In this document: piece by piece, positions 3,985-31,055 of the stretch
Position numbering within the stretch: position 1 is the first letter of the stretch
How the letters are laid out: the number at the start of each line of letters is the position of its first letter
IMG/VR virus record: IMGVR_UViG_3300045988_166572
Coordinates: 1 to 43,718 of that record
Direction: 5' to 3' (one strand)
Origin: a virus
Length of the DNA: 43,718 nt
The notes under the pieces: generated by a model
What the model saw: the letters and a program-made list of their open reading frames with translations, nothing else
Told to the model about the DNA's origin: nothing
The model's database searches: none
Position numbers and translations under genes: made by a program

Positions 3985-4013
3985 TTGTAGCTGTTCCTTT
4001 TTTGGCGTATAAT
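3985..4013 (+). promoter_or_regulatory. Candidate sigma-A promoter of moron 1
   Basis: -35 TTGTAG (3985-3990), 17-nt spacer, -10 TATAAT (4008-4013), 21 nt upstream of ATG 4035. Confidence 0.45.
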
Positions 4014-4034
4014 GGTAAAAAGGGGGGATTTACA

Positions 4035-4946
4035 ATGGATAAAAAGAATGAAAAACAAAAGAAGAAATGCTTTATTATTACACCTATAGGTAATGAAAAC
4101 TCAGAAATATTCAGAAAGGCGAAGGGTGTTATTGAAAGTACAATTAAGCCTATTTTACAAGAATATGATTTTGATGATATTAAGCCTGCGTATGAAATAA
4201 ATATGTCAGGCATGATTAGTACACAAATTATCAATCGAATAATAAATGATGATTTAGTAGTGGCTAATCTAACAGGGAACAATCCTAATGTTATGTATGA
4301 ATTATGTTTGCGGCATGTTGTTGCAAAACCGATAATTCATATTTGTGAGAGTGGAACTTCGCTTCCTTTTGATGTTAAGGATAATAGAACGATATTTTAT
4401 GTAGACGATATGCTTGGTGCGGAAGAATTAAAATACAATTTGAGGAAATTTTTAGATAAAATAGATTATTTAGAAGATTGTATGGATAATCCAATTTATA
4501 ATGCATACAGATATGGAAAATTACTAAAAGAAACACAAGGAACTAAGGAGAATGAAATATTAAAGATTTTGCTACAAATACAAAATACATTGGGTCTACA
4601 ACAACGTTATAATACTTTTATCATACCAGGGGGACACAGTATTGATTTTGATTCTGCTTTTGCAGGAGTTAGAGATGAACAACTTGGAAAAGAAGAATTG
4701 CGCAAAGTCAATGGAGATTTGCTTCAAAAATGGTTACCGTATAATGGTCATAAATTGAAGGTACATGAGCTTGCGAAAAAACTAGATACAAAGTCGTCAA
4801 CTATAATTTATGTAGCAAAAAAAGTAGGACTCGATGTAAATAATCAATTATCAGAATTGAATGCTGATATGGTAAACAAGATTTTAACATACATTTGTAA
4901 TAATATCATAGAAGGAGATCCTAACGAGTTCGAAGAAAAAGAATGA
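4035..4946 (+). CDS. Moron protein: N-terminal nucleoside 2-deoxyribosyltransferase/TIR-like Rossmannoid domain + C-terminal IF2_N-like helical DNA/RNA-binding motif
   Basis: ATG 4035 lies 6 nt after AAAGGGGGGA; the TTG 4002 of the ORF track has no SD. CFIITPIG....DLVVANLTGNNPNVMYELCLRHVVAKPIIHI fits the NDT-like pattern, and KVHELAKKLDTKSSTIIYVAKKVGLDV fits IF2_N. AT-rich. Confidence 0.75.
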   Translation: MDKKNEKQKKKCFIITPIGNENSEIFRKAKGVIESTIKPILQEYDFDDIKPAYEINMSGMISTQIINRIINDDLVVANLTGNNPNVMYELCLRHVVAKPIIHICESGTSLPFDVKDNRTIFYVDDMLGAEELKYNLRKFLDKIDYLEDCMDNPIYNAYRYGKLLKETQGTKENEILKILLQIQNTLGLQQRYNTFIIPGGHSIDFDSAFAGVRDEQLGKEELRKVNGDLLQKWLPYNGHKLKVHELAKKLDTKSSTIIYVAKKVGLDVNNQLSELNADMVNKILTYICNNIIEGDPNEFEEKE

Positions 4947-5040
4947 ACAACCTTCTTCTATGCCAAGTATGATAAAGAGAAGAAGTGATACAATTGTGAC
5001 GAGGGTGCAATATTAAAATTGATTCTATTTTCAAAGGAAA

Positions 5041-5072
5041 AATGACAGGTCTTTAATAACCTGTCATTTTTT
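5041..5072 (+). terminator. Rho-independent terminator of moron 1
   Basis: AATGACAGGT (5041-5050) pairs perfectly with ACCTGTCATT (5059-5068), 8-nt loop, then a T-run to 5072. Confidence 0.8.
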
Positions 5073-5086
5073 GTGGGAGAAATTAA

Positions 5087-6460
5087 ATGGATATTGAAAC
5101 AATAAGACAATTAATAAAAAAATATGAGTCTGGCCATGCAGCATTCATAATGCAGGCAGAGGTGGCAAAGAGATATTATCGTAATGAAACGGATATCTTG
5201 TTTCGAAATAAACAGAAAGAAGAGGAAAAAGAGGAGGCAAATAATCCTCTACGGAATGCAGATAATCGAATTCCGAGGAATTTTCATGGATTGATTGTCA
5301 ACCAAAAGGCTGCTTATGCTTTTACAGCACCACCATTATTTGATGTAGGCAGTACAGAGAGTAATAAACGTATAACGGAAGCTTTGGGTGATGAGTATGC
5401 TAAGAATTGTATGGAGTTGTGTGTGAATGCTGCAAACACCTCTATCGCCTGGGTGCATTACTGGAAAAGTGATAATGGCTTTGAATGGGCAGTTGTTCCA
5501 AGTGAGCAGATTATCCCGGTATTTGACCGAAATCTTAAGCGCAGACTGATTGGAGCAATGCGGGTATACCCGGACACCGACGATGCAACGGGTGATATTT
5601 ATACGGTATACGAATACTGGACAGACACAGAGTGTCAGGCATTTCGACGCAGAACTGGTGATGAATTGGAATTGCTGACCTATTATGATATGTTTATGGA
5701 CCCGGAGAGTGGTGATATGGTAGCGGATTACCAACATGATTTCGGGGAAGTACCATTTATTCCATTTTACAACAACAATATACATACAGACGATTTGCGA
5801 AACATTAAGCCGCTGATAGACGTATACGATAAGGTCTACAGCGGTTTTATTAATGATTTGGATGATATACAGGAGTTAATTTTTGTACTGTCTGGATATG
5901 GTGGCGAAGATTTGAACGGTTTCCTATCTGATTTGAAAAAATATAAAACCATCAAGGTAGACGGGGACGAGGGCGGTGCAGTGTCCACCCTTAATATTGA
6001 GATTCCAATTGAAGCAAGAAACAGTGTATTGGAAGCAACAAGAAAGGCAATCTTCGAACAGGGGCAAGGATTTGACCCACAACCAGAGAACTTTGGAAAT
6101 CGGTCGGGTGAAGCATTGAAATTTATGTATTCTCTTTTGGAAATGAAAACGGGATTGATGGAAACAGAGTTTAAACTTGGATTTTCACGTCTGATTCGTG
6201 CAATTTGTAAGGCACTCGGTATTGAATGCAGCGTGATTATTCAAACATGGACTCGTACTAGCATTAAAAATGATGTGGAACAGGCACAAATTTGCAGAGA
6301 ATCTGTTGGAATTGTAAGTCAAAAGACGATATTGAAAAACCATCCTTTAGTTGAGGATGCGGATGCAGAAATAAAGCAGCTTGAGACAGAAGAAAAAGAG
6401 AATCAAAAAAAGACAGAGCTCTATGTTGATGCATTTCAAAGAGAGAATAACGATGGGTAA
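5087..6460 (+). CDS. Portal protein (SPP1 gp6-like)
   Basis: 457 aa, lying between terL and the MuF head protein. GGGAGA SD before ATG 5087. Confidence 0.88.
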   Translation: MDIETIRQLIKKYESGHAAFIMQAEVAKRYYRNETDILFRNKQKEEEKEEANNPLRNADNRIPRNFHGLIVNQKAAYAFTAPPLFDVGSTESNKRITEALGDEYAKNCMELCVNAANTSIAWVHYWKSDNGFEWAVVPSEQIIPVFDRNLKRRLIGAMRVYPDTDDATGDIYTVYEYWTDTECQAFRRRTGDELELLTYYDMFMDPESGDMVADYQHDFGEVPFIPFYNNNIHTDDLRNIKPLIDVYDKVYSGFINDLDDIQELIFVLSGYGGEDLNGFLSDLKKYKTIKVDGDEGGAVSTLNIEIPIEARNSVLEATRKAIFEQGQGFDPQPENFGNRSGEALKFMYSLLEMKTGLMETEFKLGFSRLIRAICKALGIECSVIIQTWTRTSIKNDVEQAQICRESVGIVSQKTILKNHPLVEDADAEIKQLETEEKENQKKTELYVDAFQRENNDG

Positions 6461-25312: not shown

Positions 25313-26007
25313 TGGCAACACAGACACAGGTAAAAGCATTTATTGAAAGAATCGCACCGATCGCACAGGCAAAGTCTAAAGGGCGGGCATTGCCGTCCGT
25401 GTGTATTGCACAGGCCTGTTGTGAGTCTGCATATGGGACAAGTCCTAAGATGATCCTGGCAAATGCTGTGTTCGGTATCAAGGTCGGCAAGTCAAAGGCG
25501 CATTTCGGTACGGCATGGCATGATAAGGCATACAGCACACGTACAAAAGAGTGCTATGACGGTAAGACATACACTAATATCACGGACCTGTTCAGGGCGT
25601 ATGACAGTATCGATGATGCAGTGGAGGATTATTATGATATGCTCGGTATCTGTAAGAGGTACAAGGCATGTGTCAATGAAAAGAATCCACAGAAGTGCAT
25701 CACTGCTATTAAAAATGGTGGGTATGCAACAGCTCCTGATTATGTGTCAACGATTATGAGAATTATTAATAAGTATAATCTGACAAAATACGATTGCCTT
25801 ACACTTCGAAAAGGATCTTCAGGATCCGTGGTGAAAGAGTTGCAGATCTTACTTATTAAGGCTGGATACAGCTGTGGTAAATACGGATCGGACAGTAAGT
25901 TTGGTGACAGCACTCTGGAAGCGGTGAAAGCATTCCAGGCAGACAGAGGACTTGCGGTTGACGGTGTTGTGGGGACAAAGACATGGGCAGAATTGTACAA
26001 AGGTTAA
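25312..26007 (+). CDS. Endolysin: GH73 N-acetylglucosaminidase domain + PG_binding_1 domain
   Basis: ATG 25312 (MATQTQVKAF). CIAQACCESAYGTS (GH73 catalytic region). C-terminal GSSGSVVKELQILLIKAGY...FGDSTLEAVKAFQADRGLAVDGVVGTKTWAEL. Confidence 0.9.
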   Translation: MATQTQVKAFIERIAPIAQAKSKGRALPSVCIAQACCESAYGTSPKMILANAVFGIKVGKSKAHFGTAWHDKAYSTRTKECYDGKTYTNITDLFRAYDSIDDAVEDYYDMLGICKRYKACVNEKNPQKCITAIKNGGYATAPDYVSTIMRIINKYNLTKYDCLTLRKGSSGSVVKELQILLIKAGYSCGKYGSDSKFGDSTLEAVKAFQADRGLAVDGVVGTKTWAELYKG

Positions 26008-26108
26008 TTGATGGTGCATTGGAGGTATTATGCCTGATGCTTCTAACGGTAGCAGTAGGTGTGTTGTTCCCTATTGCTACTGTATTGAAATGGTTGGATA
26101 AATAACAG

Positions 26109-26137
26109 GGATCCCGGCGTTATGCCGGGATTTTTTG
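26109..26137 (+). terminator. Rho-independent terminator ending the late/lysis operon
   Basis: ATCCCGGC (26111-26118) pairs with GCCGGGAT (26124-26131), then TTTTTT. Confidence 0.8.
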
Positions 26138-26220
26138 CGTATAAACAATTGTTTATGTCTTTGTATAATGGAGCAGTAAATTGTGTATCACTACAGTGCA
26201 CGATAAATACTACTCCTAAA

Positions 26221-27573
26221 TCAGTAAAAATGAAAACCGCATAGTTTGCGGGTTTCCGGATCTACCTGAATAGCTTTAATATATTTTTTCCAGAAGATTT
26301 TCTTATTTTCAGCATCCAGTGAACGATATAAGTTGATCCAGTCACCCTGAAAGAAGGAGACCAGATTCTCACGTTTTTCAATAGTATTCTCGATGTCGCA
26401 TACAGTGGATAGCTCCATTAATTTCTTTTCAAGCAGTTCATATTGACTTTCGTAATAAGAATCCGTGATACGGCCTTTCTGGTACATCAAATTCAATCGT
26501 CCCATTTCATCATGAATTACCTTCGCATTATTTCCGGATTCCTGTTCGGAGGCAGCCATGCTTTTCAGCTTTTCAATGTCGCGCTGCAGAAAGATCAGGA
26601 CATTTTCAATCAGATAATTTTCTACGGTCTTTTCCAGTATGGACGCTCCGCCATGCCGGTTAAATTTATTCCCACAACGATATTTTATGTAGATGCTCTG
26701 ACCGCCGTTTTTCAGGTTCTGTTTCTTCCGGTAACCAGTGAAGTTGTTTCCGCAGATCGGACATTTAATCAGTGATGTAAAAATGTAAGGCTCATATTGT
26801 CCGGTATTCTGCTTAGTAGTTCCTATTGTGCGGATCTGCTCGTATTGTTCTCTGGTAAGGTACGGTTCACACCAGTTTGGATTGCCACGGAATGAGCCGG
26901 AATACTTCTCGTTTTTAAAGAGACGGTCTATAACGTTGTCAGAGGGGGTATTTTGGCCATATTTCATATTTAGGTAACGAATTACGTCACGAATGGAAAA
27001 AGTCTTAAAATAACGCTCATACGCGCTCACAACGATATGCGAGACGGATTCATCCTTTTGTACATATCCGTCAACCACCTTATAGCCATATGGAGCCATG
27101 CGTCCACTGATCACTTTTCCCTGGGCTTCCTTATGCCGGAATACTGCTTTGATTCGTTCGGAGGTACGGTCACATTCATTCTGTGCAACTGCCAGCATAA
27201 TATTAATCTTAAGCTGGCCATCAGCGGTGGAAGAGTCATAGTCCTCATAGATGGTTTTCCAGTTACAGTGGTGTGCATCTAAGATTTCCTGTGTATTGTG
27301 GTAGTCCTTCACATTACGGAACCATCGGTCTAATTTGGTTACCAGGATCAGGTCCACCTTATTCGCTTTCACATCATCCAGAAGCCTCATAAGGTCCTTA
27401 CGGTTCTTCATTTTCTTCCGGGCAGTAATGCCTTCATCTTCGTAGTAACCGACAATAACATATCCGTGATCTTTTGCGTATTGCGTGAGATCGTCTTTCT
27501 GTGTGGCGAGGGATAAGCCCTTTTCCACCTGCAGGTCGGTAGACACACGATCATAAATGGCACAACGGATCAT
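26221..27573 (-). CDS. int: Large serine recombinase (integrase)
   Basis: MIRCAIYDRVSTDLQ catalytic Ser motif, recombinase domain, zinc ribbon CPICGNNF...YRCGNK, coiled-coil tail. ATG 27573 follows GAGGAGG; the 27612 start of the ORF track is rejected. Confidence 0.95.
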   Translation of the reverse strand: MIRCAIYDRVSTDLQVEKGLSLATQKDDLTQYAKDHGYVIVGYYEDEGITARKKMKNRKDLMRLLDDVKANKVDLILVTKLDRWFRNVKDYHNTQEILDAHHCNWKTIYEDYDSSTADGQLKINIMLAVAQNECDRTSERIKAVFRHKEAQGKVISGRMAPYGYKVVDGYVQKDESVSHIVVSAYERYFKTFSIRDVIRYLNMKYGQNTPSDNVIDRLFKNEKYSGSFRGNPNWCEPYLTREQYEQIRTIGTTKQNTGQYEPYIFTSLIKCPICGNNFTGYRKKQNLKNGGQSIYIKYRCGNKFNRHGGASILEKTVENYLIENVLIFLQRDIEKLKSMAASEQESGNNAKVIHDEMGRLNLMYQKGRITDSYYESQYELLEKKLMELSTVCDIENTIEKRENLVSFFQGDWINLYRSLDAENKKIFWKKYIKAIQVDPETRKLCGFHFY

Positions 27574-27611
27574 TATATCATCCTCCTCATACATTTTATG
27601 GCAGCAGAGCA

Positions 27612-27643
27612 TAAAAATGCCCGGTGCTTGTATTTTCGCCGGG
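27612..27643 (-). terminator. Possible minus-strand terminator after the two-gene cassette
   Basis: On the minus strand, CCCGGCG-aaaatacaag-CACCGGG (6 of 7 bp) is followed by CATTTTTAT. It shares GGG with the 50-bp inverted repeat. Confidence 0.35.
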
Positions 27644-27690
27644 AAAACCGATACAATTTCACGTGTGTAGGTGACTGTATCGGTTTTCCC
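27641..27690. repeat. 50-bp element: perfect 15-bp inverted repeat with 20-bp spacer; candidate attP of the serine integrase
   Basis: GGGAAAACCGATACA (27641-27655) and TGTATCGGTTTTCCC (27676-27690) are exact reverse complements. The centre falls on non-palindromic GT (27665-27666). Lies 68 bp upstream of the int start. Confidence 0.45.
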
Positions 27691-27749
27691 GATGTGGTTC
27701 CTGATCTGCTCCGGTATTGGCGTACCGGGGCAGATTTTAATTATTTATA

Positions 27750-28178
27750 TTACATATATTTTATTGATTCAAATGTATAGTAAATAGAAACTATTATATT
27801 GGACAAACCACCTATAAAGAGTATGGAGGAAAGTACAGTATTATCAAAGAAAATCCAACATATAATAGAAAGCAAATAAATAAGCAATCCCACAACAATA
27901 TTTGACAAGTATATACGCTCATGGTGAGTTTTTTTGAACTGTGCAACTTTCTGCGGATTTTTAGGAACAGCTAGGTAGATGGTTAAAATAGTAAGTAAAG
28001 CTCCAATAAAAGTGGCTGACACAGATATCAATGTTACAATTTTATTATTGTCTAAGTTAAAGAAATTGTTTTTCTGGAAATAGTCTATGTGGTCATTAAG
28101 ATATTTACATAGAAATATAGTAAATATGGGAAAAATTATGCAAGAATAATATTTAAGTTTACTTTTAATTTTGTTCAT
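27750..28178 (-). CDS. 142-aa four-helix integral membrane protein (RexB-like by size/topology/context)
   Basis: Hydrophobic stretches at about aa 10-27, 47-71, 89-111 and 114-136. ATG follows GGGGGGTAAAGT. AT-rich. Lies 46 nt downstream of the 277-aa gene. Confidence 0.8.
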   Translation of the reverse strand: MNKIKSKLKYYSCIIFPIFTIFLCKYLNDHIDYFQKNNFFNLDNNKIVTLISVSATFIGALLTILTIYLAVPKNPQKVAQFKKTHHERIYLSNIVVGLLIYLLSIICWIFFDNTVLSSILFIGGLSNIIVSIYYTFESIKYM

Positions 28179-28224
28179 ACTTTACCCCCCATATACTAAT
28201 TTTGGTATGTCATATTAAATGTAC

Positions 28225-29058
28225 TTATGCTAAAGCTTCCGATAGTTTTTTCTTAATAATTGATGTATTTTTTACAGCATCTTCAGTAATATCAAAAGGT
28301 GTGTTTTTTGTATATATAGTTTCCAAAAAATTTATGGTTTCTTCCAAACCATATTCGTTTTTTCCTATCAGATGAATAGCATTGTAAGTATCCCTCTCTT
28401 GAGTAGAAATTTCAACTAATTTATCAATCAACTTATTGTTTGAACCTTGTTTTAATTTAAACTCTACAGAATACGATTCGTATTTGAAATCACCGAGAGA
28501 AACAGCAACTGATTGAATGTTGTCTTTTGATTGCTCTGGAGCAAATGAAAGCTGTAATTTACACATATTTTTTAATTGTTTTGCTGCATGGCTTACATCT
28601 CTAATTTTTTCAGGAGCAATAAAAATTTTTACCATATTACCAGATTTAGCATAAATACAGTCTTGTAGTATACAATGGATCTTAGAAATATTTTTGTGTT
28701 GAATGGCAGACATTCGGTTTTTTGTACAGTCAATATAAAAATAAGTATAGGCTTCTAATTGAGTGTTAGGGTCTATAGAGGTATAAGGTTCTGTTTCGTT
28801 AGTCTGCTTATTTCTTTTTTGTAAGAAATTAGTATACTTCAATTCACTCTGTTTTGAACATGTACCAAAAATATAATTGATACCAATTTCCAAGATATCA
28901 ATATTATATTTTTCTTTTTCGTACTCATGCCTATATGTATTGCATGAAGGAAAGGATTTTTTTACCAAATCCAAAGTGGATATAGGATATATCCCATTGT
29001 TATACATTGACGGCTGTGGTTCAAATGTATAAAACTTTATAATCTTCGAAACGCTCAT
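28225..29058 (-). CDS. 277-aa soluble protein of unknown family (RexA-like by size/context)
   Basis: ATG 29058 (MSVSKIIKFYTFEP...) follows GGAGGGGG; the longer 29082 start contains that SD. No motif of a named family recognised. AT-rich. Confidence 0.8.
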   Translation of the reverse strand: MSVSKIIKFYTFEPQPSMYNNGIYPISTLDLVKKSFPSCNTYRHEYEKEKYNIDILEIGINYIFGTCSKQSELKYTNFLQKRNKQTNETEPYTSIDPNTQLEAYTYFYIDCTKNRMSAIQHKNISKIHCILQDCIYAKSGNMVKIFIAPEKIRDVSHAAKQLKNMCKLQLSFAPEQSKDNIQSVAVSLGDFKYESYSVEFKLKQGSNNKLIDKLVEISTQERDTYNAIHLIGKNEYGLEETINFLETIYTKNTPFDITEDAVKNTSIIKKKLSEALA

Positions 29059-29127
29059 TAGTACCCCCTCCATTTCAAACATCAGTTCGATTGAACTGCC
29101 GTTTTTTTTTAGAGAGTAATAGTGTGA

Positions 29128-29340
29128 CTAAGATTTGTGCGCTTCTTTTTCTATTGCATTTGCATTGTATTTATCAAAATCTCCGTTTTTTATGTGATTG
29201 ATGGCATGCCAGTAGGCTGATAATTGTCGCTCGTATGATAGCCGTGCATTTAAAAAGATTGTATAGCTATCGTCCGTATTCTTTATTACCTGTTCGCCAA
29301 CAAGCACGTCCATATCTATTAGCTGTGTATTAATATCCAA
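29128..29340 (-). CDS. Short ImmA/IrrE-like protein with degenerate metal site (HAINH instead of HExxH)
   Basis: TTG start after GGTGA. YTIFLNARLSYERQLSAYWHAINHIKNGDF resembles the core of ImmA-type metallopeptidases, but the protein is only 70 aa and lacks the Glu. Confidence 0.55.
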   Translation of the reverse strand: MDINTQLIDMDVLVGEQVIKNTDDSYTIFLNARLSYERQLSAYWHAINHIKNGDFDKYNANAIEKEAHKS

Positions 29341-29391
29341 ATTTCATCACCTATTACACATATAACATATTTTATGTACCATAATTAGGAC

Positions 29392-29757
29392 TCAAATATC
29401 TTCCCCGGTTTCTTGTTTATAAAGATTCCTCATAAATTCCATATGTGCCTTAAATCTTTCAGGTGGCATATTCTTTTTCATATCGAAAAGAGAGCGCATA
29501 TCTGGGTCTTCAAACATTTCTTGTGCCATTTTGGCCGTTTCTTCATTGAGATAGTAGCCAGAGGTTTCTTCTCCAGTCATGAGATAATCCAAACTTACTT
29601 CAAAATAGTCTGCAATTTTCTGTAACTTATCTCTTTTTGGCTCGCTTCGGCCAGATTTCCAATCAGAAAATGTAGATTTTGTAATACCAGTTGCCCGGAC
29701 CACATCAGCGTCTTTAACCCCTCTTAAATCCCTTAACTTGCAATAAATTTCGTACAT
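29392..29757 (-). CDS. XRE-family HTH repressor (CI-like)
   Basis: LRDLRGVKDADVVRATGITKSTFSDWKSGRSEPKRDKLQKIADYFEVSLDYL. Divergent from the cro-like gene. Confidence 0.85.
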   Translation of the reverse strand: MYEIYCKLRDLRGVKDADVVRATGITKSTFSDWKSGRSEPKRDKLQKIADYFEVSLDYLMTGEETSGYYLNEETAKMAQEMFEDPDMRSLFDMKKNMPPERFKAHMEFMRNLYKQETGEDI

Positions 29758-29950
29758 ATAAACACCTCATAAAATAAAGTTTTAAAATCCGTACAAAAAG
29801 CATTGACAAGTAATGATTTCCGTGCTAACATAAATACATAAAGTTCGGAAATCAAAACAGCCTGCAAATTGTAGTTATATGATATCTGGTAAATTGATTA
29901 TAACTGATTTCCGAACTAAACGCAACAATAAAGTTCGGAAGGAGGATGAA
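29758..29950. promoter_or_regulatory. Divergent promoter/operator region of the genetic switch
   Basis: Operator half-sites: TGATTTCCGTGC (29814-29825), GTTCGGAAATCA (29843-29854), TGATTTCCGAAC (29905-29916) and GTTCGGAA (29933-29940). Exact 13-mer ATAAAGTTCGGAA at 29838 and 29928. Rightward -35 TTGACA (29803-29808) /17/ TAACAT. Leftward TTGATT /17/ TATGTT. Confidence 0.7.
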
Positions 29951-30139
29951 ATGTATAAAAATTATGTGGAACTAAGAGACAAAAAAGGAGTAACTGACTA
30001 TCAAGTATCAAAAGATACGGGCATTACGAAGTCTACATTTTCTGATTGGAAAGTTGGGCGCAGTAAACCTAAGGCAGATAAGTTAAAGCTTTTAGCTGAA
30101 TACTTTGGTGTGGATATTGGTTATTTCTTGGAAAAGTGA
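29951..30139 (+). CDS. Cro-like XRE HTH protein
   Basis: ATG 29951 after GGAAGGAGG, 62 aa, VSKDTGITKSTFSDWKVGRSKPKADKLKLLAEYFGV. Confidence 0.8.
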   Translation: MYKNYVELRDKKGVTDYQVSKDTGITKSTFSDWKVGRSKPKADKLKLLAEYFGVDIGYFLEK

Positions 30140-30159
30140 AAAGCACGGAAAGGAGAGAG

Positions 30160-30381
30160 ATGGAACAGAAAGAAGCAAAAAGGATATTGATTTTCAATAT
30201 CAGGCGCATCATTAAGGACAAAGGACTTAAACAGTGTGCGGTAGCAGAAAAGGCAGGATTTAGCCCGAGACTTTTTAGCTCGATGCTGAATGAGCGAAAG
30301 TTTATTTTAGCAGAATACATTCCCAATATTGCAACAGCACTGGGGGTAGATGTTAATGAGTTGTACAGGAAGGAGGGATAA
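30160..30381 (+). CDS. Second XRE-family HTH protein
   Basis: ATG 30160 after GAAAGGAGAGAG, IKDKGLKQCAVAEKAGFSPRLFSSMLN. Confidence 0.75.
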   Translation: MEQKEAKRILIFNIRRIIKDKGLKQCAVAEKAGFSPRLFSSMLNERKFILAEYIPNIATALGVDVNELYRKEG

Positions 30382-30385
30382 GTAA

Positions 30386-30532
30386 ATGGAAAAAACGGAA
30401 ACGTTAAAAGATTACACCAAGATTGTTGTTGAAACAGATGAAAAGAACCCTATAACCATAGTAACAATTACAAATGGTGAAACGGTTGTTGCGGATGGAT
30501 ACAGGGTTCGATTGACGCCAAAATACGATTAA
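30386..30532 (+). CDS. 48-aa hypothetical ORF (MEKTETLKDYTKIVVETDEKNPITIVTITNGETVVADGYRVRLTPKYD)
   Basis: ATG 30386 after GGAAGGAGGG. Hand translation; not in the ORF track. Confidence 0.45.
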   Translation: MEKTETLKDYTKIVVETDEKNPITIVTITNGETVVADGYRVRLTPKYD

Positions 30533-30759
30533 TGTTCTTTGTCGCGTGGAGGGCAAGGATCATTGCCATAGCTGTCCTTAGAACGAATTTGACCATTCCG
30601 ACTTTGAATGATAACTTCGCTCTTTTGGTTAATGGCTATATCTCTTGCATAAGCGGCAGCATCCGATTGACGGTCAAATATTTTAGTGTCGCGCTGGTTT
30701 CCTTCACCGTGGACAGCCCATCTGTCACCACGTGGAGATACCCATTGATTTGTTCCCAT
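30529..30759 (-). CDS. DUF2188-family small protein
   Basis: ATG 30759 (MGTNQWVSPRGDRWAVHGEGNQRDTKIFDRQSDAAAYARDIA...) after AAGGAAGGAG. It is the only minus-strand gene inside the early + operon. Confidence 0.8.
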   Translation of the reverse strand: MGTNQWVSPRGDRWAVHGEGNQRDTKIFDRQSDAAAYARDIAINQKSEVIIQSRNGQIRSKDSYGNDPCPPRDKEH

Positions 30760-30801
30760 GATAATCATCTCCTTCCTTAAGTGGAACACATTTGTTAGTT
30801 G

Positions 30802-30830
30802 ATTATACAGAACAAATGTTTATGTGTCAA
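30802..30830 (-). promoter_or_regulatory. Perfect consensus sigma-A/sigma-70 promoter driving the DUF2188 gene
   Basis: The minus strand reads TTGACA (30830-30825), an exactly 17-nt spacer, then TATAAT (30807-30802). The 9-bp inverted repeat ACATTTGTT (30788-30796) / AACAAATGT (30811-30819) brackets the -10. Confidence 0.8.
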
Positions 30831-30941
30831 GACATAAAGCACAATATATAGAGAAAATGCAGAAAATAATACAATATTTTGCGTATTTGTACTGGAAGGT
30901 AAAAGTAGACAAGCTATTGGAGTAGGAAGGAGGTACAAAGA

Positions 30942-31055
30942 GTGGCATCTATAGCAAAGACATTAATTATCTGTTTTACGATTGTAATGTGTTTGGCAAT
31001 TATATGCCGTGGTGGAAAGAAAGGAGATAACGATGCCAAGGGTAAGAATGAGTGA
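30942..31055 (+). CDS. 37-aa putative membrane peptide (VASIAKTLIICFTIVMCLAIICRGGKKGDNDAKGKNE)
   Basis: GTG 30942 lies 8 nt after AGGAAGGAGG (30924-30933). Hand translation. Confidence 0.3.
   Translation: MASIAKTLIICFTIVMCLAIICRGGKKGDNDAKGKNE

Follow-up and report, generated by a model that had tools for sequence, protein, structure and literature searches.

What are the two AT-rich genes that lie between the repressor and the integrase of the virus recorded as IMG/VR IMGVR_UViG_3300045988_166572, and do they belong with the RexA/RexB exclusion systems? The window, that is the whole stretch of 43,718 nucleotides analysed here (positions 1 to 43,718 of that record), was found to be a complete temperate phage genome. 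The product of the first of the two genes (gene A, encoding a soluble protein of 277 amino acids, aa) shared 100% identity with a BFVD entry from 'Siphoviridae sp. ctD6g5'; the window is this phage, a temperate siphophage of Lachnospiraceae. A preliminary description, made from the nucleotide sequence alone, had likened gene A and the adjoining gene B (142 aa, hydrophobic) to the cI-rexA-rexB arrangement of phage lambda. We read the cassette as a RexAB-type module, remote and divergent in sequence, which sits in the lysogeny module as an AT-rich accessory region ('moron'), and by analogy with known systems it may act as a sensor coupled to a membrane effector.

Protein A and its distance from RexA

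Neither protein A nor protein B had a significant match in Pfam, NCBIfam, PHROG or PADLOC. The RexA models (Pfam PF15969, PADLOC PDLC02339) did not match A even at E≤1, and the RexB models (Pfam PF15968, PADLOC PDLC02340) did not match B. As positive controls, lambda RexA scored 1e-97 (Pfam) and 9e-110 (PADLOC) and lambda RexB scored 8.5e-92 (Pfam) and 8.6e-61 (PADLOC), so the missing matches do not reflect a gap in the libraries. No Pfam family, RexA and RdgC (PF04381) included, was matched at E≤0.001 by any of 102 full-length relatives of A, and RexA was not matched by them even at E≤0.01; the set returned just six unrelated families, with one member each, at E values of 0.002–0.007. Candidate matches of A to DUF7174 (E=0.039) and ECSIT_C, and of B to Sulf_transp, ArnF and RdrD, fell far below the curated cut-offs and were rejected as noise, those of B being typical of hydrophobic composition. 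These searches agreed with the preliminary description, which had recognised no motif tying the 277-aa protein to a named family. The 'RexAB' of Staphylococcus and Streptococcus is an unrelated helicase-nuclease of AddAB type which shares the name by collision.

Protein A had no hydrophobic segment (maximum Kyte-Doolittle 19-residue mean of 0.88) and was basic, with an isoelectric point (pI) of 8.3 compared to 8.6 for lambda RexA. Its AlphaFold2 model (predicted local distance difference test score, pLDDT, of 83.5; predicted template modelling score of 0.77) consisted of a globular domain split in two (residues ~1–139 and 237–277) and an inserted four-strand, three-helix domain of dimerization type (~140–236). 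The N-terminal part comprised a sheet and helices up to residue ~139, and the central domain contained strands at 144–149, 163–172, 196–201 and 227–233 and helices at 155–160, 182–187 and 208–220, after which two strands and a long C-terminal helix (261–276) rejoined the globular domain. The model did not contain the two-helix tip of RdgC; residues 71–100 had low pLDDT and formed short strands only. The RexA/RdgC fold is built from a split globular domain, with a seven-stranded sheet and helices, and a four-stranded dimerization domain that occupies residues ~143–234 of lambda RexA (PMC11077077), in agreement with the position of the central domain of A.

The A model was compared with 350,542 PDB chains using Foldseek. 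Lambda RexA (8twq) was found at ranks 1 and 3 (E=6e-7 and 1.8e-4) and Escherichia coli RdgC (2owl) at ranks 2 and 4 (E=9.4e-5 and 3.1e-4), and all four matches had a Foldseek probability of 1.0. Rank 5 (E=7.4e-3) was chain N, subunit unverified, of the yeast constitutive centromere-associated network (CCAN) kinetochore complex, of which IML3 and CHL4 are subunits; from rank 6 onward the matches were to unrelated proteins at E>0.03. RexA, RdgC and IML3/CHL4 share one fold (Adams et al., PMC11077077). The comparison with RexA and RdgC-type folds that the preliminary description had proposed thus returned these two proteins as the top four PDB matches. In BFVD, phage RdgC-like proteins matched the A model at 1e-4 to 7e-4, and three uncharacterised proteins of 299–322 aa from uncultured phages (A0A8S5S8L2, A0A6J5Q1Z2 and A0A8S5QGP5) matched it at E=7e-14 to 2e-9.

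Sequence profiles were compared with hhalign. Profile A1 was a narrow, close-family profile, A2 was built from the 102 diverse relatives of A, and A4 was built from 29 bona fide PF15969 RexA sequences. Alignment of A2 with A4 gave a probability of 85% (E=6.3e-6, score 44.2) over 227 collinear columns, joining residues 9–251 of A with residues 3–240 of RexA, while two reversed and 30 column-shuffled controls scored ≤20.7 over ≤57 columns. When the domains were aligned separately, the N-terminal domains scored 19.2 against each other and the dimerization domains 20.7, with all cross-domain pairs at ≤12. Conserved positions that coincided between A and lambda RexA were F9/F5, L101/L88, T105/S92, P149/P136, K201/K191 and K233/K221, and lambda K221 is one of two residues whose mutation abolishes DNA binding by RexA (PMC11077077). 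The similarity was detected only between A2 and the RexA profile; A1 and A2 gave no significant alignment with the single lambda RexA sequence. Protein A is a real but very remote homologue of RexA, which strengthens the lambda-like arrangement that the preliminary description had suggested from order, sizes, topology and position. We hold with high confidence that it has the RexA/RdgC fold and stands closer to RexA in architecture and context. By analogy with RexA, A may dimerise and bind double-stranded DNA without sequence specificity.

RdgC, of the same fold superfamily and the second-best structural match, is a dimeric DNA clamp with an extra ring-closing tip domain, a role in recombination and replication restart, and no membrane partner. 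The whole-chain template modelling score (TM-score) of A was higher to RdgC (0.47) than to RexA (0.36), and this, together with the phage RdgC-like matches in BFVD, would suit a protein that modulates the phage's own recombination or replication in the manner of RdgC, with B as an unrelated neighbour, for example a superinfection-exclusion or injection-blocking protein. We consider this very improbable. The best Foldseek E-value was to RexA, the A model had no two-helix tip (its low-confidence residues 71–100 were free of helices), and the Pfam RdgC model matched none of the 102 relatives. Additionally, the gene for A belongs to the lysogeny module and shares its strand with the repressor, away from recombination and replication genes (a related locus, L001, has a separate ERF/Gad2 recombination module), and the constant linkage of A to a co-evolving B family, described below, is not explained by chance adjacency.

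Clustering at 90% identity gave 37 representatives for the A family and 29 for the B family. An exhaustive profile search returned ~133 A clusters at 50% identity, nearly all of the full-length matches being 260–315 aa, compared to 36 clusters at 90% identity for canonical RexA from a less sensitive word-seeded search; as the searches differed, these counts are not strictly comparable. Megablast of window positions 26000–31000, and tblastn of A and of B, gave no match in 50,697 deposited phage records. A genome search seeded with A1 retrieved 3 genomes. The hosts named by the genomes were Lachnospiraceae only, one of them being the cultured Mediterraneibacter glycyrrhizinilyticus f23, in which the pair takes the convergent form described below.

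Protein B and its linkage to A

Protein B was close in length to RexB (142 aa and 144 aa), and the hydrophobic segments of the two proteins were at near-identical positions. Hydropathy analysis of B revealed three strong segments (~47–71, 89–111 and 114–136) and a weaker N-terminal one (12–25, maximum 1.36). The AlphaFold2 model (pLDDT 83.7) contained long helices at 12–30, 44–70, 86–111 and 114–139, in line with the four helices of the preliminary description. The positive-inside rule predicts a cytoplasmic position for both the Lys-rich N-terminus and the basic loop (72–88); the predicted topology is N-in/C-in. In the B family alignment (A3), the end of the second transmembrane (TM) helix, LTILTIYLAVP, was invariant and K73 nearly so; further invariant residues were H86, I89, Y90, N93, G97 and W108. 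Conservation was highest where TM2 ends and where TM3 begins, on either side of the basic central cytoplasmic loop. The defence-null substitutions of Sbash gp31 lie within that protein's central cytoplasmic loop (PMC6426596).

An expanded B profile (48 sequences) was aligned with a RexB profile made from 19 unique sequences found downstream of RexA in IMG/VR loci. This gave a weak match (probability 9%, E=3.5e-3, score 23.9) which was in register (residues 6–88 against 6–89) and took in TM1, TM2 and the basic central loop; the maximum score of 42 reversed or block-shuffled controls was 18.7. B is RexB-like, as the preliminary description had it, in size, four-helix topology and position, and homology to RexB is suggestive at best. 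When the B model was compared with BFVD, a marginal match (E=1.3e-3, TM-score 0.8, 19% identity) was obtained to A0A8S5MEN3, an uncharacterised 134-aa gut-phage protein of Siphoviridae sp. ctet217, and an uncharacterised 165-aa Sbash protein, whose gene number was not confirmed, matched just at E=4.6. The BFVD matches of the A and B models suggest that further, still more divergent Rex-like pairs exist in metagenomic viruses.

The fetched loci contained 19 distinct A proteins, 17 of which had enough downstream sequence to be judged. A B-family gene adjoined A in all 17, co-directionally in 7 and convergently in 10. In the window's own subfamily (≥50% identity) A and B were co-directional with a spacer of 18–61 nt. 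In a subgroup at ~42% identity and in all remote members sampled, B was convergent to A, usually with a 3′ overlap of 14–25 nt (L011, where B lies at 4856–5278 on the minus strand; L013–L016; L061–L068; L146), L015 having a 7-nt gap instead of an overlap. The convergent partners are true B homologues, as they scored 2e-7 to 1e-36 against the original B-family hidden Markov model (HMM) and had lower E-values against the expanded profile. The convergent layout implies that each gene has its own promoter and that the A:B ratio may be controlled by antisense effects or transcriptional interference. A and B very probably form a functional pair.

In locus L012 (3935–4807; Lachnospiraceae metagenome-assembled genome, MAG, nC27_bin.130) a homologue of A was broken over several frames next to an intact B. 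This is either a decaying sensor gene or the result of indel errors in the assembly.

Strict linkage, convergent and overlapping layouts included, would also suit a toxin/antidote-like pair in which A is the toxic or antiviral effector and B sequesters it until infection. There is a precedent in Butters gp30/gp31, likewise a soluble and a membrane protein which give prophage defence against heterotypic phages; there the effector role falls to the soluble protein, which the membrane protein sequesters (PMC12894663). The MAG with A fragmented and B intact would fit such reversed roles, but its frameshifts may be assembly errors. Moreover, the membrane protein is the effector in four of the five characterised Rex-like systems (PMC12894663), and the library searches found no recognisable enzymatic or toxin domain in A. 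We regard reversed roles as distinctly unlikely.

The genes preceding the pair encoded a CI-type helix-turn-helix (HTH) protein, an S24/LexA-like repressor, a zinc-ribbon/BLIP protein or an XRE repressor with an ImmA-like protein. In total at least five types of repressor or upstream gene were found beside the pair, followed by a tyrosine or a serine integrase. Upstream genes were read in 10 distinct contexts, in 8 of which A came directly after the repressor, and the placement in the immunity region on the repressor strand, as in the window, was seen in L001, L004–L007, L015 and L065. The exceptions were L013, where the pair follows an SRAP gene, and L014, where it lies beside lysis genes. 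Of 13 other loci, 10 had a pair whose GC content was 10–19 points below that of the flanking sequence, and in the remaining three the difference was 2–6 points. A related repressor was present in 80 IMG/VR phages, of which 2 carried the pair. These results supported the separate acquisition proposed in the preliminary description, and the pair moves between unrelated lysogeny modules.

Seven sister phages, likewise with a related repressor (L081, L102, L108, L114, L115, L117 and L120) carried other cargo in the same slot between the repressor/ImmA-like genes and the integrase. This cargo comprised an HSDR_N nuclease-like protein, a PemK/MazF-like domain protein, a PBECR3 nuclease beside a SAP-domain membrane protein, a Uma2 endonuclease, a Bro-N/PDC-S13 candidate defence protein and secreted lipoproteins. 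The slot between repressor and integrase is a typical variable moron or defence hotspot.

The frequent position of A directly downstream of the repressor bears on another explanation, in which A mainly regulates the lysis-lysogeny switch, binding DNA or the repressor close to the operators, and stabilises lytic commitment after induction, B antagonises it, and exclusion is a by-product. Lambda RexA acts in this way independently of RexB, and RexB antagonises it (PMC11077077; bioRxiv 10.1101/2021.04.19.439022). The variety of unrelated repressors (CI-HTH, S24/LexA-like, zinc-ribbon/BLIP, XRE with ImmA) is nevertheless a poor fit for a repressor-specific partner, the pair is missing in 78 of the 80 phages whose repressor is related, which shows that it is not part of the core switch, and in L013 and L014 the pair lies away from the repressor. 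This explanation therefore appears unlikely, if less so than the reversed roles of A and B.

The lysogeny module of the window

The features of the lysogeny module are listed in Table 1. The minus-strand order was XRE repressor, ImmA-like open reading frame (ORF), A, B and integrase. The supported minus-strand genes of the window formed one block, except for a lone gene of 86 aa encoding a DUF2188 protein (30529–30789, minus strand), which lies in the rightward early region and matched the PADLOC candidate defence family PDC-S16 (E=7e-32). A DUF2188 gene was also found near the A/B pair in locus L065.

Table 1. Coordinates of genes and signals of the lysogeny module, in window positions (RBS, ribosome-binding site; AF2, AlphaFold2)
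Feature	Position	Strand	Evidence or remark
Large serine recombinase (integrase)	26221–27612	−	Pfam Resolvase, Recombinase, Zn_ribbon_recom; ends the lysogeny module downstream of B
15-bp GC-rich hairpin directly 3′ of B	27703–27746	+	T-run on the plus strand; no U-tract on the minus strand
Gene B, 142 aa, four-helix membrane protein	27750–28178	−	ORF, hydropathy, AF2 model
RBS of B, GGGGGG	28185–28190	−	6 nt before ATG 28178; within the 46-nt A–B spacer (28179–28224)
Gene A, 277-aa soluble protein, RexA/RdgC fold	28225–29058	−	ORF, AF2 model, Foldseek, hhalign
Shine-Dalgarno sequence of A, GGAGGGGG	29064–29071	−	5 nt before ATG 29058; read from sequence
Small hairpin and T-run, spacer between ImmA-like ORF and A	29083–29108	+	No convincing minus-strand terminator
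Short ImmA-like ORF, 70 aa	29128–29340	−	phrog_20886; between repressor and A
XRE/CI-type repressor, 121 aa	29392–29757	−	Pfam HTH_19/HTH_3/Phage_CI_repr; heads the leftward lysogeny operon
Cro-like HTH gene	29879–30139	+	Divergent to the repressor

The two co-oriented genes, their spacer and the GGGGGG before B were all present where the preliminary description had placed them. The A frame stays open to an upstream ATG at 29082 (285 aa). The start at 29058 was preferred because it is preceded by GGAGGGGG and because all A homologues begin with MSV or MSI. The GC content was 29.1% for A and 26.8% for B (~28% for the A+B block), compared to 39.3% for the whole window, and the lowest 500-nt values of the window (0.266 and 0.294) were within 28001–29000, confirming the AT-rich block noted earlier. 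That A and B are chance ORFs was excluded by their length in DNA of 28% GC, their conserved families and their confident folds.

The ImmA-like label, used in the preliminary description for one of the flanking genes, was weak, while the location of A and B between the repressor side and the integrase was upheld. The ORF has only 70 aa, its similarity to M78 peptidases was low (Pfam E=0.037; phrog_87 E=1e-3), and it has HAINH in place of the HEXXH of M78 peptidases, so that the catalytic Glu is missing. Orthologues in sister phages were ~73–137 aa. The ORF may encode an anti-repressor component that is degenerate or has no catalytic activity.

A scan of 27400–30300 found neither a promoter-like site nor a convincing minus-strand terminator between the repressor and A. 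Over the scanned region, 9 promoter-like sites were found compared to 13.9 expected by chance, and no promoter can therefore be assigned. A −35/−10-like site at 28295–28267, inside the 3′ end of A, was considered as an analogue of P_LIT and dropped, since promoter-like matches were no commoner than chance. Since the small hairpin at 29083–29108 does not make a convincing minus-strand terminator, transcription of the repressor operon may plausibly continue into A, and A and B may plausibly be co-transcribed with the repressor as part of a leftward operon. The orientation of the genes, with no clear terminator or promoter on the minus strand, also points to probable expression of A and B in the lysogen. 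The hairpin at 27703–27746, if it is an intrinsic terminator, opposes transcription entering B from the integrase side.

The true start of the integrase is probably ATG 27573, which is preceded by an RBS (GAGGAGGA). Between B and this probable start, at 27640–27691, lies an inverted repeat of 52 bp overall, with perfect 16-nt arms (CGGGAAAACCGATACA / TGTATCGGTTTTCCCG) set 20 nt apart, which could be a regulatory hairpin or operator or could serve the serine integrase as an attP-like site. A second AT-rich island (GC 0.30–0.32) contains a 314-aa ORF (4002–4946, plus strand), of which aa 22–152 matched the PADLOC model 'Effector TIR' (PDLC00733, E=6.2e-7) and the C-terminal end carried an IF2_N-like segment. 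It lies among early and packaging genes and is a candidate for a second accessory gene with a role in defence or counter-defence.

A divergent Rex-like lineage and its proposed mechanism

The layout proposed in the preliminary description, a soluble RexA-like gene adjoining a small four-TM gene in an immunity region, was recovered and could be compared with known systems. Lambda RexA/RexB (PF15969/PF15968; 8TWQ) and the cassette both combine a repressor, a soluble protein of ~278 aa and a four-helix membrane protein of ~143 aa, all on the repressor strand, and both are AT-rich relative to their neighbours, lambda rexAB being likewise lower in GC than cI. A and lambda RexA are further alike in the split globular fold with an inserted dimerization domain, in length (277 aa and 279 aa), in basic pI and in their weak collinear profile similarity. 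Lambda has an enterobacterial host, whereas the cassette is found in Gram-positive Lachnospiraceae; the window differs from lambda in its XRE repressor, ImmA-like ORF and serine recombinase; and the lambda layout is co-directional, whereas most of the distant members of the A family are convergent with a 3′ overlap.

Like the cassette of the window, RexABpp of Pseudomonas putida prophage P1 (PP_5643/PP_5644) has a RexA-like protein that is recognisable only by profile-profile or structural comparison, and a four-TM partner without detectable RexB homology, downstream of a CI-like repressor; this remote pair was shown experimentally to defend via membrane damage (PMC12894663). It belongs to another phylum and its function was proved by experiment, whereas the cassette of the window is likened to it by description. 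The pairs of the actinobacteriophages Sbash (gp30/gp31), CarolAnn (gp44/gp43) and Toast (gp42) also consist of a soluble and a four-TM protein, are expressed from the prophage and lie near the immunity region (PMC6426596, PMC11077077). Gene orientation varies between phages, as in the A/B family, and in these pairs the membrane partner has a functionally important central cytoplasmic loop. Their RexA-like proteins are longer (337–372 aa compared to 277 aa for A), and the pairs were found by BLAST and by a domain shared with RexA, a domain match that A lacks. The five characterised Rex-like systems are all from Proteobacteria or Actinobacteria (PMC12894663, 2026).

Several results weigh against kinship with RexAB. 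No Rex model of Pfam, PADLOC, NCBIfam or PHROG matched A or B. An hmmsearch of A1 and A2 against all PDB sequences gave chance matches (uL23, Slit, spectrin) and no RexA, and the hhalign comparison of A1 with the RexA profile was not significant. The whole-chain TM-scores of A to RexA and RdgC given above are low, with root mean square deviations of 11–18 Å, and the Foldseek-aligned identity between A and RexA was ~11–12%. The crystal of RexA is in a closed conformation, while AlphaFold predicts an open, RdgC-like one (PMC11077077); comparison of a closed crystal form with an open predicted form probably accounts for the low scores. For protein B, there was no significant similarity to RexB, and Foldseek of the B model against BFVD gave no RexB among the listed matches, none of which reached E≤0.001. 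Finally, B is convergent to A in most of the distant members, unlike in lambda, which argues against obligatory co-transcription.

We consider a Rex-like exclusion mechanism moderately probable for the cassette. Its steps can be proposed by analogy with lambda RexAB, Sbash gp30/31, CarolAnn gp44/43 and P. putida RexABpp. The lysogen would express both genes, probably by read-through of the repressor operon, and A would be a dimeric, non-specific DNA binder that switches between closed and open conformations. Upon infection, A would sense a phage protein or a DNA-protein intermediate of replication or recombination and would then engage B at its conserved central loop, which is cytoplasmic and positively charged. 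B would in turn compromise membrane potential or integrity, leading to growth arrest and aborted infection. A might additionally bias the repressor/Cro switch, as in lambda.

The preliminary description had suggested that the pair may be undescribed. This holds for the lineage, which is new according to a literature search, its absence from the model libraries and its absence from the 50,697 phage records searched; it does not hold for the kind, as RexAB-type systems have already been described. Further remote Rex-like pairs were anticipated by Gentile et al. 2019 (PMC6426596), and the find is useful to specialists without being conceptually surprising. What is unexpected, at the level of the family, is the convergent, overlapping layout, the cassette of the window itself copying the lambda layout.

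Co-directional and convergent partners together form a natural experiment on the control of the sensor:effector ratio, for which M. glycyrrhizinilyticus f23 offers a cultured entry point to the convergent variant. The stoichiometry of A and B is critical in lambda and in P. putida. A broader joint reading, which we put forward tentatively and consider rather doubtful, is that the pair represents a large, unrecognised Rex-like lineage in low-GC prophages, in which the convergent 14–25 nt overlap would be ancestral, transcriptional interference or antisense pairing, and not an operon, would set the A:B stoichiometry, and B would be an extremely diverged true homologue of RexB. A host range across the Bacillota would be an extrapolation, since the named hosts are Lachnospiraceae only. 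If this joint reading were true, all Rex-like systems would form one ancient sensor/channel superfamily spanning phages of Gram-negative and Gram-positive bacteria.

RexAB is, to our knowledge, the oldest known abortive-infection system. The A/B pair adds a sixth Rex-like lineage, probably more diverse than canonical RexA, with the cluster counts coming from unlike searches. As an independent set of RexA-like sequences, it can be used to find the truly conserved residues (F9, P149, K201 and K233). Because the PADLOC and Pfam models miss the cassette, defence censuses based on such models would under-count Rex-like systems. The lineage extends Rex-like systems to Gram-positive gut bacteria, namely to prophages of human-gut Lachnospiraceae, in which phage defence is poorly charted.

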